The position numbers and the translations under genes are program-made. A stretch of 64,000 nt of DNA, from positions 52,678 to 116,677 of the forward strand of contig CAVTQD010000057.1 in assembly GCA_963736745.1 (NCBI GenBank). Reading direction: 5' to 3'. Under the pieces are notes generated by a model. That model did not search any database, had not been told where the DNA came from, and saw only the letters and a program-made list of their open reading frames with translations. Positions 3,776 through 9,032 of the stretch are shown here, one piece after another; positions within the stretch are counted from its first letter, which is position 1; each line of letters opens with the position of its first letter. The DNA comes from an uncultured Verrucomicrobiae bacterium. Lineage in GTDB: Bacteria; Verrucomicrobiota; Verrucomicrobiia; Chthoniobacterales; JAFAMB01.

Positions 3776-5479
3776 CTACATTTTTTCAGGGACCCGAATT
3801 CCTAACAGCTCGAGCCCGGACTGCAAAACCCTGGAAAAAACCTCGCATAACATCAGCCTGGTCTCGCGCACCGCAGGCTCCGCAGAGAGCACCGGGCAGG
3901 ATTCATAAAACCCGTGAAATTCCGCGGCGAGTTCGTACAAGTAATTGGCAAGGATATTCGGCTTAAATCCATCCAGGATCGCAGGTACAACATCCGGAAA
4001 CAGAAGTATTTTTTTTGCGAGATCCAGTTCCGCTTTTTCTCTGAGAGGAACCGGTCTCGCTGCCGAGTACGGCGCAGGAAGCTTTCGAAAGATTGAGCGG
4101 CACCGGACATAAGCGTTTTGGAGGTAGGGCGCAGTGTTGCCTTGGAGCGATAGCATTTTGTCCCAGGAGAATATATAGTCGCTCATACGATGCTGGGAAA
4201 GTTCAGCATACTTGACCGCTCCGATTCCGACAATCCTTCCAATCGCGAGACGATCCTGCTCCGACAATTCCGGATTTTTCTCGGCTACGATCGTTGTAGC
4301 GCGGGTAATTGCTTCATCCAGCAAGGCCCGGAGTGGAACCGATTCTCCTGACCGAGTACGCATCAGCTTACGGTCCTCCCCTAATATGCTTCCGAAAGCG
4401 ATGTGTTGAAGATCGACGTCGTATCCCAAGCGACGCGCAAGGCTGAACAACTGCTGAAAATGAAGCTGTTGGGGCGCGCCAACAACATACCAGATGGCCT
4501 CTGCCCGCCAGCGATTCAAGCGATACTCAATCGTCGCGATATCTGTCGTGGCGTACCCAAATCCTCCGTCGGATTTCCGAATGATAAATGGATCTTCACT
4601 CAGTACTCGATCCCAGACAACGACAGCTCCGTCGCTAACCTCTGCGAGTCCGCGCTCCTCGAGTTCCTGCACAACCCGCAACAATTCCGGGTTATAAAAG
4701 CTTTCACCAAGCTGATAGTCAAAACGGACGTTGAGGAGACCGTAGACCTTGGAAAATTCCTCAGTTGAAAGCTCAACGCACTGTTGCCAAATCCGCCGAT
4801 TTTCGTCATCCCCCTGCTGGAGTTTAACCAGTTCCTGGCGACATTCTTGCAGTATTTCGGCGTCTTTTTTTGACGCCGTGTCCGCTTCGCGATAGATCCG
4901 AACGAGCTCCGCAACCGGGTCTAAATCGAGATTTTCCGGACGCAACAAATGTTTCCAACCGTAGATCACCTTCCCGAACTGAGTCCCCCAATCGCCGATG
5001 TGATTATCAGTAACCACGTTGTGCCCCAGAAACCGGGTGATCTTTGCCAAAGAGTCCCCGAGAATCGTCGATCGGATATGCCCGACATGCATCGGCTTCG
5101 CGATATTCGGCGAGCTGAAGTCGATGACGACAGTTTTCGGCTTGTCCGTCCGTTCCACGCCAAGGCGGACATCCAAAGCAAGTTCGTGGAGGCGATACGC
5201 GAGAAACTCCGGAGAAAGCCTGAAATTGATGAACCCGGGCCCGGCGACTTCGGGCGGCGTTCCGATGTCGTTCACCGATAGATTCGCGACAATCAGGCCC
5301 GCGAGATTTCTGGGTTTTTGTTTAAGCTTCTTGCCTAACACCATCGCCACGTTTGTCTGGTAGTCGCCATGCTGCGGATCTGTCGTCGGGGCTATTTGGG
5401 GCGGTTCGTCGATTGCGATGCCAATCGCTTGAAGAGCATTTTGCAAACGCTCTCGCAATATTTCGGAGACCGTCGCCAT
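3776..5479 (-). CDS. argS: Arginine--tRNA ligase
   Basis: 567 aa. HIGH-type motif PMHVGHIRS, full-length class-I ArgS layout and the characteristic C-terminal Met. Confidence 0.95.
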   Translation of the reverse strand: MATVSEILRERLQNALQAIGIAIDEPPQIAPTTDPQHGDYQTNVAMVLGKKLKQKPRNLAGLIVANLSVNDIGTPPEVAGPGFINFRLSPEFLAYRLHELALDVRLGVERTDKPKTVVIDFSSPNIAKPMHVGHIRSTILGDSLAKITRFLGHNVVTDNHIGDWGTQFGKVIYGWKHLLRPENLDLDPVAELVRIYREADTASKKDAEILQECRQELVKLQQGDDENRRIWQQCVELSTEEFSKVYGLLNVRFDYQLGESFYNPELLRVVQELEERGLAEVSDGAVVVWDRVLSEDPFIIRKSDGGFGYATTDIATIEYRLNRWRAEAIWYVVGAPQQLHFQQLFSLARRLGYDVDLQHIAFGSILGEDRKLMRTRSGESVPLRALLDEAITRATTIVAEKNPELSEQDRLAIGRIVGIGAVKYAELSQHRMSDYIFSWDKMLSLQGNTAPYLQNAYVRCRSIFRKLPAPYSAARPVPLREKAELDLAKKILLFPDVVPAILDGFKPNILANYLYELAAEFHGFYESCPVLSAEPAVRETRLMLCEVFSRVLQSGLELLGIRVPEKM

Positions 5480-5485
5480 TCCTTC

Positions 5486-5962
5486 TCAGCTTGCCTGGGA
5501 ACGGGTGGCCTTATTGTCGAAAATGCTCAGGATCTCTTCGGACGATTCTGCCTTCGCAAGCTGTTCACGGACTGACTTGTCGTTCAGAAATTTAGCGATC
5601 GCGGCCAGCGTACGGAGATGAACCTGAAACTGATCCTTGGGCACAACAAACAAGACGATGAAGCGAACGGGAGAATTGTCGAGTGAATCAAACTCGATCC
5701 CGGAGGAAGATCGCCCAAACGCCGCGACCACCTCACTTACACAGTTCGATGAGGCGTGGGGAATCGCAATCCCGAATCCAATCCCGGTGCTCATCGTCTC
5801 CTCGCGTTGGCGCAGGGCGGCCAAAATCGAATCTCGGTCAGACGCCCGAACCCGGTTCTTTTGCACCAACAGGTCGATCAGCTCCACGATTGCCGCCCAC
5901 CTTTCGGTTGCCTTCATCTCGGGGATGATTTGATCTACTGATAAAAGGGAGCCCAATGTCAT
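5486..5962 (-). CDS. ptsN: PTS IIA-like nitrogen regulatory protein (EIIA-Ntr)
   Basis: ORF 5486..5986 (GTG) trimmed to ATG 5962 (MTLGSLL). Has the EIIA fructose/mannitol-type fold with the active-site region GIGFGIAIPHA. Confidence 0.8.
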   Translation of the reverse strand: MTLGSLLSVDQIIPEMKATERWAAIVELIDLLVQKNRVRASDRDSILAALRQREETMSTGIGFGIAIPHASSNCVSEVVAAFGRSSSGIEFDSLDNSPVRFIVLFVVPKDQFQVHLRTLAAIAKFLNDKSVREQLAKAESSEEILSIFDNKATRSQAS

Positions 5963-6133
5963 AGCTCTCGATCGAGAATGCCGCACCTTACCAAGTCGCC
6001 GTCCTTTGACAAGAGTCTTTCACTTGAAACATGCAAACGCTATTTGTAAGGCGGAACACCAAATCTGCCCTTTCGATTCAATGTTGAGATTCGACCGTGT
6101 TACCAATAACCACCTATACTCTGATTCTATTGC

Positions 6134-7582
6134 ATGAAGATTTTAATGGCAACCAGTGAGTTCTCCCCTCTCGGTTCGACCGGTGATCTAGGGGATCAGG
6201 TTCGTATTCTGACCATCGAACTGAGGAAACTTGGCCATGACGTCAGCGTCGTCATGCCTTTTTATCGGTCCATTCGCGAAGGCAATTACATTGTCCGCCC
6301 GACCGACGGCGAGTTCCAGGTCAACCTGGGAGGCAAACGAGCATCATCCGACATCGTCGAAACCACCAGCCCGGACGGAATTCAGGTCTACCTGGTTCGC
6401 CGCGATGAGTATTTCGATCGACGCGGCATTTATGGCGCGGACGGTAGGAGCTACGAAGATAACGCCGAGCGATTTATATTCTTCTCAAAAGCTGTATTGG
6501 AGCTGGCCCGCAGAATTTCACCTTCTCCGGAACTGATCCATTGTCATGACTGGACCACCGCGCTGGTTCCGGTTTTCGTCCGGGAACGCCAATTGCCATT
6601 TCGCACTGTCCTGACAATCCATAACCTTGAGCATCAAGGGTCGTTCTGGAGCTTCGATTTTTCATTAACCGGTTTGCCAGGCAGCTACTTCGGCCCACGC
6701 GGCCTCGAGTTTTATGGACGGATGAATTTCCTGAAAAGTGGAATCCTGTATTCAGACGCGGTGACGTTGCCCGGCGAAACCGTTCTTTTCGAGGCGTTCA
6801 CCTCTCAGCATGGCTTCGGCCTCGACTCTGTCCTGCTTGAAAATCGCTTTCGACTCTACGGCATTCCTCACGGGGTCGACTACTCCCAAACTAACCCGCC
6901 GATCGACAAGCTTGTCGAAAAACATCCCAAGTCCGAAGCGGGCGACGGAAAATTGCGTTTCCGGGAAGCACTTTTGGCCAATGTCGAGCTTGAAAAAATT
7001 CCGAACGGTATTGTTCTCAATCTGCCAATCGAATCGAATGATGAGGACGCATTCGCCTCTGTGCAACCGATTCTGGATCTTGTCCTAACGGACGATACAT
7101 GTCTAGTGGTGACCGGAAAAGGAACGGACCGGGATCTGGCGGAAATCATTATCACCGAAAGAAAATATCCCAATCGTTTCGCGTACCGCCCAGATCCGGA
7201 CGCAAAGCTGCACAAACTTGGACTGGCCGGTGCAGACGTGGTTTTACTGCCTTCGTCGCTTGGATACCGTGGTACAAACGCGATAGCGGCAATGCGATAC
7301 GGATCCTTGCCTATCGTAAAAATTCACGGCGGTGTGCATCAACTCGTTTCCGACTATGATCCTGCCACAGAAAGTGGCTGCGGCTTCGTCTATAATGATC
7401 ATTCTCCCATGGCGCTTTGGGATTCCATCCGGCGCGCAAACGAGCTTTACCGGCACTCGGAAGAATGGAAGAAACTAGCACAGCGAGCGAAAGCCCTCGA
7501 TTTCTCGTGGACGGAGTCGGCCAAGGCCTTCGCAAAGCTGTACGCCAACCTTTTGCGGCATCGGCAGGCCGCTCCCGCTTAG
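6134..7582 (+). CDS. glgA: Glycogen/starch synthase (GT5) homologue with degenerate catalytic motifs
   Basis: 482 aa, colinear with bacterial GlgA (MKILMATSEFSPL..., GADVVLLPS, MRYGSLPIV, DFSW near the C-terminus). KTGGL is replaced by STGDL and the FEPCGL block by LGYRGT (see finding). Confidence 0.85.
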   Translation: MKILMATSEFSPLGSTGDLGDQVRILTIELRKLGHDVSVVMPFYRSIREGNYIVRPTDGEFQVNLGGKRASSDIVETTSPDGIQVYLVRRDEYFDRRGIYGADGRSYEDNAERFIFFSKAVLELARRISPSPELIHCHDWTTALVPVFVRERQLPFRTVLTIHNLEHQGSFWSFDFSLTGLPGSYFGPRGLEFYGRMNFLKSGILYSDAVTLPGETVLFEAFTSQHGFGLDSVLLENRFRLYGIPHGVDYSQTNPPIDKLVEKHPKSEAGDGKLRFREALLANVELEKIPNGIVLNLPIESNDEDAFASVQPILDLVLTDDTCLVVTGKGTDRDLAEIIITERKYPNRFAYRPDPDAKLHKLGLAGADVVLLPSSLGYRGTNAIAAMRYGSLPIVKIHGGVHQLVSDYDPATESGCGFVYNDHSPMALWDSIRRANELYRHSEEWKKLAQRAKALDFSWTESAKAFAKLYANLLRHRQAAPA

Positions 7583-7652: not shown

Positions 7653-9032
7653 ATGCTGCCAGAAATCGTCACTCCCATCCCAGGACCGCGCTCGCGCGAC
7701 CTCGCATCGTCGCTCTCGAAGTACGAAAACCGGAATGTAACCTATCTTGCTCCGGGCTTTCCGGTATTTTGGGAGAAGGCTTCTGGAACGAATGTCTGGG
7801 ATGTCGATGGAAACCGGTTTCTGGATCTCACCGCCGGTTTCGCGGTTGCCGCCCACGGCCATACCCATCCGTCGATTCGCACGGCGATGATCGATCAATC
7901 CGCCAAATTGCTGCACGCCATGGGAGATGTTCATCCCGCCGAGAACAAGCTTCTCCTTTGCCAGAAGCTGAGCCAGATCACATTCGAAAGGTGGGGACTC
8001 GGGATCGGGAAAACTACTCTGTGCAATTCCGGCTTCGAAGCAGTTGAAGTCGCGATCAAGACCTCCCTGCTGCACAGCGGAAAGCCGGGGGTGATCGGGT
8101 TTACCGGCGGATACCACGGGTTGGGATACGGAGCCTTGGAAGTGATAGGTATTCGTTGGTTTCGAGAGCCGTTCCAGCAACAACTCCGCGACTTCGCCAC
8201 CTCTATTCCCTTTCCTAACTGTTATCGGTGTCCGTTTGGAAGACTAGAAGGTTACCGGTTGGACGGATCCCGTTTCCCTAATTGCGCAAGCTCCTGTCTG
8301 AAAGCAATTGAGGATCAAATCGTTCAGGCCATTCGCCAGCGCCCTATTGGATGCATTGTGGTCGAACCTTGTCAGGGGCGGGGCGGTGAAGTGGTGCCTC
8401 CGCTCGATTTTCTGCGAATGCTCCGCCAGCTTTGTGACGCGTACAAGATTTTGCTGGTATTCGACGAAATATATACTGGATTCAATCGCACCGGCGCGCT
8501 TTTTGCCAGTGATCAGTTCGGAGTGTATCCGGACCTCCTATGTCTTGGTAAAGGGATGACGACGGGTTTTCCTATGGCTGCCTGCGTGGGACGGGCAGAG
8601 ATTATGGATGCCTGGCCGCGATCGACCGGCGAAGCACTGCATACCACCACCTTCCTTGGAAATCCGATAGGCTGTGCTACTGCGCTTGCTTCCATAAAAC
8701 TGCACCTGGAGAACGGCGTCGGAAAACGAGTTCAAACGGTTGGAAAACGTCTTCGCGACCATCTCAAAGAAATGGCTCTGCCCGCGATCGGACATGTGCG
8801 AGGCCTGGGCCTCATGATTGGCGTAGAAATCGTCAGGAAGGACGGTTCCCCCGATCCAGATCTTGCCTTTCAGACAGTTCTGTCGGCACTGCAGGATGGT
8901 CTCATATTTCTTGGAGGCGGACCGAACGGAAACATCTTGTCCTTCACGCCACCCTTCTGTATCGAGGCCGATGAAATCGATTACACGTGCGCCAAAATTT
9001 ACGAATATTTGCGTTTGGGATCGGTCTCGTAG
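7653..9032 (+). CDS. Class-III PLP-dependent aminotransferase (acetylornithine/GABA-type)
   Basis: 459 aa with DEIYTGFNRTG, LGKGMTTGFP and an N-terminal IPGPRS region. The substrate cannot be assigned from sequence alone. Confidence 0.85.
   Translation: MLPEIVTPIPGPRSRDLASSLSKYENRNVTYLAPGFPVFWEKASGTNVWDVDGNRFLDLTAGFAVAAHGHTHPSIRTAMIDQSAKLLHAMGDVHPAENKLLLCQKLSQITFERWGLGIGKTTLCNSGFEAVEVAIKTSLLHSGKPGVIGFTGGYHGLGYGALEVIGIRWFREPFQQQLRDFATSIPFPNCYRCPFGRLEGYRLDGSRFPNCASSCLKAIEDQIVQAIRQRPIGCIVVEPCQGRGGEVVPPLDFLRMLRQLCDAYKILLVFDEIYTGFNRTGALFASDQFGVYPDLLCLGKGMTTGFPMAACVGRAEIMDAWPRSTGEALHTTTFLGNPIGCATALASIKLHLENGVGKRVQTVGKRLRDHLKEMALPAIGHVRGLGLMIGVEIVRKDGSPDPDLAFQTVLSALQDGLIFLGGGPNGNILSFTPPFCIEADEIDYTCAKIYEYLRLGSVS

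Follow-up and report, generated by a model that had tools for sequence, protein, structure and literature searches.

The closest described counterparts of the gene reported here are the bacterial glycogen synthases of the GlgA type and a plant protein, SS5. In the ligand-contact tables of PMC6210743, the Escherichia coli glycogen synthase contacts adenosine diphosphate glucose (ADP-glucose) through K15, G18, H161, N246, V297, S298, R300, K305, G354, Y355, H356, S360, E377 and T382, and contacts glycogen through E9, L19, Y95, D137 and Y165, with D137 touching OH2 and OH3 of the acceptor. Plant SS5, in the accounts consulted in PMC12954377 and PMC10801857, is a pseudo-starch synthase that has the GT5 subdomain only, is inactive and acts in granule initiation through MRC/PII1; its N-terminal coiled coil serves dimerisation and MRC/PII1 binding (PMC12954377). 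A different route to alpha-glucan is the GlgC-GlgM-GlgE maltose-1-phosphate scheme of mycobacteria, as outlined in PMC7935935. Here we analyze P0001, a GT5 protein of 482 amino acids encoded at positions 6134-7582 (+ strand) of a 64,000-nucleotide stretch of DNA (the window) from an uncultured Verrucomicrobiae soil bacterium of the order Chthoniobacterales. We consider it fairly probable, from sequence comparisons, that P0001 is a maintained pseudo-glycogen synthase that keeps glucan binding and no longer uses ADP-glucose.

The open reading frame (ORF) begins with ATG and runs uninterrupted through 482 codons to a stop codon. The Glyco_transf_5 domain (PF08323) matches residues 2-234 (E 7.9e-65, 219 bits), the match to the GT1-type C-terminal domain PF00534 is weak (6e-07), and in a phmmer search against PDB sequences E. 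coli GlgA (2qzs, E 6.3e-53) aligned over its residues 1-477 with amino acids 1-474 of P0001. An initial sequence-only reading of this stretch had described an intact ORF colinear with E. coli GlgA and free of frame breaks, which is borne out. An AlphaFold2 model of P0001 built on 56 family sequences (mean predicted local distance difference test score, pLDDT, 74.9; predicted template modelling score 0.72) had the Agrobacterium tumefaciens GlgA structure 1rzu as its best Foldseek match (E 1.6e-32, TMq 0.65), with TMq values of 0.53-0.62 for the E. coli glycogen synthase entries; the top matches were 1rzu, 2qzs, 3d1j, 3cop, 6gne and 4hln, at E values of 1e-28 to 1e-32. As judged from alignment and model, P0001 belongs to GT5 as a full-length GT-B protein and retains the two-Rossmann-domain fold. 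Its N-terminal Rossmann domain, the acceptor or glucan-binding half (amino acids 1-245, 6134-6868; all positions within the gene refer to the + strand), is conserved as in canonical enzymes, and the C-terminal Rossmann domain, formerly the nucleotide-sugar-binding half (amino acids 246-455, 6869-7498), has relaxed, although purifying selection continues to act on it.

The similarity to GlgA extends to genomic position. The genome (5.84 Mb in 64 contigs, 75.9% complete) belongs to a family that we designate f1, family and genus labels being anonymous codes throughout. A search with P0001 of 121 genomes of the order (E <= 1e-10) gave a single match in each of 94 of them, and the matches in four (G043, G030, G009 and G024) were partial or weak. 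Among 43 genomes of the family, from 11 genera, 40 had one strong PF08323 match (split over two contigs in one case) and none had two, while the remaining three, all incomplete (61-84%), had only a weak GT4 cross-match. The gene order argS, ptsN-like gene, GT5 gene, with the first two transcribed away from the third, was present in every family locus with enough flanking sequence and also in four loci of family f7, in which the GT5 gene is canonical. In the window, argS, the second syntenic anchor, lies at 3776-5479 (- strand) and the gene for the PtsN-like protein, a phosphotransferase system (PTS) EIIA(Ntr) relative divergent from the GT5 gene, at 5486-5986 (- strand). The GT5 gene is a single-copy syntenic ortholog of canonical glgA that has changed in place, and not the paralogue that the sequence-only reading took it for. 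The weak matches in G009 and G024 (E ~1e-21) cover the C-domain only and were not counted as GT5 remnants, as they may be other GT-B enzymes.

We mapped the residues of P0001 onto the E. coli contact tables through the alignment with the E. coli enzyme. Twelve of the 14 ADP-glucose-contact positions are changed, and only His161 (His163 in P0001) and Val297 (Val294) are kept. Unlike GlgA, P0001 lacks seven donor residues: Lys15, Gly18, Asn246, Arg300, Lys305, the adenine-stacking Tyr355 and Glu377. The three motif changes that had been read by eye are all present in the phmmer alignment to 2qzs. First, KTGGLADV is replaced by STGDLGDQ, with Ser15 for Lys15 and Asp18 for Gly18, within the stretch LGSTGDLGDQ that stands in place of the KTGGL loop (amino acids 13-22, 6170-6199) and in which Leu19 is kept. 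Second, PSRFEPCGLTQ has become PSSLGYRGTNA, with Gly377 for Glu377 (PSSLGYRGTN in place of PSRFEPCGLT, amino acids 373-382, 7250-7279). Third, TGGLADTV has become HGGVHQLV (IHGGVHQL in place of TGGLADT, amino acids 397-404, 7322-7345). P0001 also retains the blocks reported as conserved, GADVVLLPS, MRYGSLPIV and the C-terminal DFSW. The losses go beyond those three motifs: the alignment places His at Asn246 (6869-6871), the tyrosine-355 aromatic is absent, and the Arg300/Lys305 stretch SRLTSQKG is LPIESNDE in P0001, the whole (S/T)RLxxQKG region being replaced by the acidic IVLNLPIESNDEDA (amino acids 293-306, 7010-7051) with loss of both basic residues.

Not all of these changes carry the same weight. 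Ser15 was found in 16 of 27 GT5 proteins from other Verrucomicrobiota orders (L156-L182, in the form ASTGGL), and all 27 have the GG pair, Asn246, Arg300, Lys305 and Glu377, which suggests that Lys15 is not indispensable in GT5 proteins of this phylum. Canonical-looking orthologs from the same order carry Arg15, and they have GGLxQI instead of GGLADT, GG(L/V)xQ(I/L) being common to them; the Gln form of the third motif thus runs through the whole order and does not mark the degenerate clade. Ser15 and GGxxQ are therefore not diagnostic, since both are found in otherwise canonical relatives, and of the changes first put forward those at Glu377 and Gly18 stand while these two do not. By sequence, the diagnostic losses are those of Glu377, Arg300, Lys305, Gly18, Asn246 and Tyr355. 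In 12 family sequences from six genera, Lys or Arg was found at position 15 in one, and Gly18, Asn246 and Arg300 in none. An aromatic residue in the Tyr355 column was likewise absent from all 12, compared with 18/21 canonical orthologs and 10/10 outgroups. Column 377 was Gly in all 12 and Glu in none, and Gly was also found there in nine of ten genus representatives.

Could P0001 nonetheless be an ordinary, active ADP-glucose glycogen synthase seen through a misleading alignment? It does reach the cut-off of the broad glgA subfamily profile TIGR02095, if narrowly (342.5 vs 328.45 bits), and public annotation names such proteins glycogen or starch synthase. However, it misses every GlgA equivalog cut-off by a wide margin (329 vs 616 bits for NF001903; 295 vs 459 for NF001899) and on GlgA profiles falls ~200 bits short of the canonical orthologs found in its order. 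Three family members scored 305-342 bits with TIGR02095 compared with 518-541 for three canonical orthologs, and 273-295 compared with 472-509 with NF001899, whose cut-off of 459 the canonical proteins pass. Moreover, Glu377, Gly18, Asn246 and the Arg300/Lys305 stretch are lost in the HMMER and the MAFFT alignment alike. We regard an ordinary enzyme as very improbable.

In contrast to the donor site, the acceptor site is largely kept, as in GlgA. P0001 has Glu9 (6158-6160), Leu19 and Asp139, the equivalent of E. coli Asp137, in the motif HDW (amino acids 138-140, 6545-6553), while Tyr100 lies one alignment step from Tyr95 and position 167, the equivalent of Tyr165, is His. Within the 12 family sequences, Glu9, Leu19 and Tyr100 are invariant, Asp139 is present in 11 and position 167 is aromatic or His in ten. 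The retained His163 opens the motif HNLEHQG (amino acids 163-169, 6620-6640), which also contains the family-specific Glu166.

We compared the conservation of the two sites using one sequence per genus, from ten f1 genera and 14 genera with canonical orthologs. Mean entropy over all columns was similar in the two sets (1.12 for f1 and 1.16 for the canonical orthologs), as it was over the five acceptor-site columns (0.45 and 0.46). The 12 donor-site columns had a mean entropy of 0.65 in the canonical set, with only 1.9% of random column sets as conserved, and of 1.68 in f1, where 98.4% of 10,000 random sets were equally or less variable. Position 300 alone reads E, Q, N, H, D, Q, Q, T, E and D across the ten f1 genera. 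On this comparison of sequences, the donor pocket is abandoned rather than re-tuned and the acceptor groove is still held.

This bears on the possibility that P0001 has kept glycosyltransferase or phosphorylase activity but changed its donor or its chemistry, for example by using glucose-1-phosphate or maltose-1-phosphate, which would need no adenine, ribose or distal-phosphate contacts. Such a change would fit with the GT-B fold with both domains under purifying selection, the intact acceptor site, the family-conserved cleft residues (the SLG loop, Arg/His379, Pro298, Asp303 and Glu166) and the presence of a maltose-1-phosphate pathway in the genome. Yet a re-tuned pocket would be expected to be conserved, and the donor columns rank with the most variable of the family, position 300 differing widely over the ten genera, which makes a different donor less likely. 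The acidic pocket (Asp18, Glu166, Glu300 and Asp303) also disfavours phosphorylated donors, and Glu377, a donor contact in the E. coli table, is Gly. This Glu is known as the acidic residue conserved across retaining GT-B enzymes. We therefore judge a changed donor to be unlikely, though it is the most serious of the alternatives. The sequence-only reading had left the choice between a catalytically divergent and an inactive protein: the divergence is supported by the 12 changed contacts, and the different donor chemistry that it allowed for has become less likely.

Selection on the gene was estimated from the ratio of nonsynonymous to synonymous substitution rates (dN/dS, Nei-Gojobori method) in six usable family pairs, five of them close (dS 0.7-1.2) and one wider (dS 2.7), a seventh pair having given no dS. 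Whole-gene dN/dS was 0.08-0.14 in the family and 0.06-0.15 in eight canonical pairs. By domain, the family and canonical values were 0.07-0.11 and 0.05-0.12 for the N-domain, and 0.09-0.19 and 0.06-0.16 for the C-domain. Identity between f1 and the canonical families was 0.50-0.56 in the N-domain and 0.33 in the C-domain, compared with 0.56-0.67 and 0.54-0.57, respectively, among the canonical families themselves. A slowly decaying gene that has merely not yet acquired a stop codon would be consistent with the roughly two-fold relaxation of the C-domain relative to the N-domain and with the dispensability of GT5 in the order, in which the P0001 search found no GT5 protein in f13 (0/11 genomes) or g12 (0/4) and found one in only 2/11 genomes of f12. 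Decay is, however, effectively refuted by the selection data (dN/dS 0.08-0.14 at dS ~0.7-1.2). In addition, ORFs are intact, at 469-484 amino acids, in ten of 11 genera, with the eleventh (g133, L187) ending at a contig end, and more than 100 distinct metagenomic homologues of 56-86% identity are all full length. We give decay hardly any credence; the earlier statement that the gene is maintained and not decaying is upheld by the dN/dS values and by an ORF that is intact in 40 of 43 family genomes.

Our combined findings favor a pseudo-glycogen synthase. P0001 would most likely no longer polymerise glucose from ADP-glucose and purifying selection would be preserving it as a GT-B protein without catalysis. 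What function remains would run through the acceptor groove of the N-domain (Glu9, Leu19, Tyr100 and Asp139), which may bind alpha-1,4-glucan ends or malto-oligosaccharide primers, with putative roles in priming, chain-end protection or granule organisation. Since dN/dS of the C-domain is ~0.15, the whole GT-B body would still be required.

Several observations weigh against this reading or limit it. The mapping onto the E. coli contacts is by sequence alignment only, and the Arg300/Lys305 stretch is shifted by three positions between phmmer and MAFFT, although both leave positions 293-306 without Arg or Lys; the Lys305 column is basic in three of the 12 family members. The C-domain, with its dN/dS of 0.09-0.19, is under clear purifying selection, and the cleft retains family-conserved residues (the S-L-G377 loop, Pro298, Asp303 and Glu166), so that a residual function in the cleft or in domain closure is conceivable. 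As for the acceptor side, we infer glucan binding from residues and not from structure, and the loops of the acceptor groove are weakly modelled: pLDDT is below 50 in regions 96-109, 165-197 and 376-378, which include some of these loops, and residues 263-270 are also of low confidence. The Tyr165 equivalent is variable in canonical orthologs too, and the His163 column is His in nine and Tyr in three of the 12 family sequences. Two other families with degenerate GT5 proteins, f16 and f8, have also lost Asp137, the altered motif reading QAHNW or HxHGW in degenerate proteins of the order, so retained glucan binding is no general rule. Finally, at 75.9% genome completeness the single-copy argument leans on the relatives.

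We surveyed how widely the donor site has been lost. A motif table of 50 orthologs showed canonical forms (R-TGGLGD, NGAD, (S/T)RLxxQK and (R/H)FEPxG) in families f5, f7, f3, f11 and f10, mostly canonical forms in f14 and partly canonical ones in f4. All 12 of the f1 sequences sampled first were degenerate. The same was found for 12 further f1 loci that added five genera, one of them cut by a contig end before the C-domain motifs, and for 11 near relatives, two of which duplicate those further loci. Divergent motif forms also appear in the tallies for 117 full-length metagenomic homologues of 56-86% identity. Judging by these motifs, donor-site loss is common to all 11 sampled genera of the family.

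Trees were built with IQ-TREE (LG+G4, quick search, with support from the Shimodaira-Hasegawa-like approximate likelihood ratio test, SH-aLRT, only). Family f1 was monophyletic with an SH-aLRT of 100%, on a stem of 0.44-0.48 substitutions per site that is among the longest inner branches. Rooting with ten outgroups from other phyla, canonical except for Ser15 in one, placed canonical families at the base and f1 as derived, nested among canonical sequences. The tree suggests that the ADP-glucose site, including the Arg300/Lys305 phosphate clamps, Gly18, Asn246 and the stacking aromatic, was lost on the f1 stem, and Glu377 with it in all but one genus. The exception, g132, was considered as a case of Glu377 retention and rejected: it has E at column 377, but in a rewritten loop (PQLTEREY), and it is nested inside f1.

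Degenerate GT5 versions of their own were found in f16 (L060, L062), f8 (L065-L069), f6 (L070-L072), f9 (L063), f2 (L064) and f12 (L073), with pairwise dN/dS of 0.12-0.32; the f8 proteins keep Glu377 and lack Arg300 and Lys305. One loss in a common ancestor of all the degenerate lineages was considered and rejected, as canonical f10 and semi-canonical f4 are interleaved with them in the rooted tree. Several independent degenerations within the order are likely on this topology, with long-branch attraction as a caveat to both statements. When 1.84 billion cluster representatives were searched with a profile, no Glu stood at or beside column 377 in 25 of the 150 top-ranking sequences, some of them fragments, so GT5 proteins without Glu377 are not rare. 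Outside the order, L087 (from a metagenome-assembled genome labelled Verrucomicrobium spinosum) and P0258 are strongly degenerate GT5 proteins with SPDSHATAGT and SLSVPTGG and without Arg300 and Lys305.

How would such a genome make glucan? Two full-length glgC genes were found (C58:16177-17340 and C52:18699-19850), scoring 447 and 440 bits against the TIGR02091 cut-off of 425, together with a GT4 protein of the 'GlgA_Coryne' or GlgM type (TIGR02149, 531 bits) and a GlgE that combines N/S, amylase and GLGE_C domains. The GlgE ORF had no NCBIfam match at E 1e-10, and its identity comes from the Pfam architecture. The genome also encodes two GT35 phosphorylases and a GH57 branching-enzyme-like ORF that scores below equivalog cut-offs; no classical GH13 branching enzyme (TIGR01515) was above cut-off in this 75.9%-complete genome (best 65.6 bits). 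Within the order sample, TIGR02149 was found in 113/121 genomes and the GlgE N-domain in 115/121, including families in which no GT5 was found (f13, 0/11). From this gene content we infer that glucan synthesis here runs from GlgC through the GT4 GlgM-type enzyme to GlgE. This near-universal GlgM-GlgE route is a likely functional replacement for GlgA catalysis, and its redundancy would have released GlgA from catalysis. P0001 itself is not of the GlgM type, as it belongs to GT5 and not GT4, and TIGR02149 is absent among its NCBIfam matches. Two reduced f9 genomes of 0.9 Mb in a single contig each (G009 and G024) still encode GlgE and the GT4 GlgM-type protein, and no full GT5 gene was found in them with P0001. 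Directly upstream of glgE (contig C61) lies an APH-family kinase ORF of 382 amino acids (L041:300-1448, +) with weak AmgK-like matches, which may encode a maltokinase or some unrelated kinase of sugars.

Another alternative is a pseudoenzyme with a protein-protein role in place of glucan binding, as a scaffold or regulator of the GlgM-type protein, GlgE, GlgC, a phosphorylase or the PtsN-like neighbour; neither gene context nor comparison across genomes points to one of these in particular. Selection has been maintained without a donor site, the divergent ptsN-like gene is conserved next to the GT5 gene across the family, and some active glycosyltransferases are known to pair with a GT-B protein that is itself non-catalytic, as streptococcal GtfA does with GtfB. 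But the ptsN synteny is also found where GlgA is canonical (f7) and so is not specific to degenerate proteins, no glucan-enzyme gene is adjacent to the GT5 gene in the window, and the residues specifically preserved are those of the glucan acceptor site. A protein-protein role is in our view a rather improbable account.

Returning to the pseudo-glycogen synthase, its closest precedent is plant SS5: by analogy, P0001 would work least like GlgA and most like SS5, without being an SS5 member. Both are GT5 members that are predicted or described to be inactive, keep the GT5 (glucan-binding) subdomain and have one or more active synthases alongside. On the other hand, going by the SS5 accounts cited above, P0001 keeps both Rossmann domains at canonical length while SS5 lacks the whole GT1 subdomain; the N-terminus of P0001 (MKILMATSE...) coincides with that of canonical GlgA and carries no extension or coiled coil; and SS5 is a paralogue beside SS1-4, whereas P0001 is the product of the only GT5 gene in its genome. 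We tentatively suggest, as a possibility with somewhat less than even prospects, that P0001 is a bacterial counterpart of SS5, in which GlgA, after takeover by GlgM-GlgE, became a non-catalytic factor that binds chain ends or primers and controls, on behalf of the GlgE pathway, initiation, access to chain ends or the organisation of granules, and that this was repeated within Chthoniobacterales (f1, f6, f16, f8, f9 and f2) and in other Verrucomicrobiota.

Names such as 'glycogen synthase' and 'starch synthase' in public annotation, together with the TIGR02095 pass, mean that reconstructions of abundant soil Verrucomicrobiota would wrongly infer a working GlgC-GlgA pathway. The order also provides a natural experiment, with two coexisting alpha-glucan routes and one family whose classical synthase has lost its donor site and has long been kept with its acceptor site. 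To our knowledge, how glucan synthesis by the GlgE pathway is primed and organised is not settled. If our reading is correct, this priming would become testable through a GT-B protein dedicated to binding glucan without catalysis, and the idea of a pseudo-synthase would carry over from plant starch (SS5) to bacteria. Literature searches that combined GlgA with pseudoenzyme or catalytically inactive, and Chthoniobacterales with glycogen, yielded no paper on a bacterial pseudo-GlgA, with most subscription journals lying outside the search.

Around the gene, a scan for sigma-70-like promoters between 5900 and 7800 gave two sites, not above shuffled sequences (1.3 +/- 1.0), one of them a weak + strand site at 6091-6120 with 9/12 matches. 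The PtsN-like protein is 85-98% identical across the family, far above its neighbours, and a regulatory link between its gene and glucan metabolism is possible. Downstream of the GT5 gene by 70 bp, on the same strand, is a class-III aminotransferase gene (7653-9032, +), which is adjacent in some family genera and replaced by prmA in others; a conserved GT5-aminotransferase operon is therefore unlikely. Lastly, long GT5 forms of 969-1162 amino acids were seen in P0153, P0175, P0180 and P0242 and at loci L156 and L174, with the canonical GT5 domain at the C-terminal end in P0153, P0175 and P0242 and at the N-terminal end in P0180.

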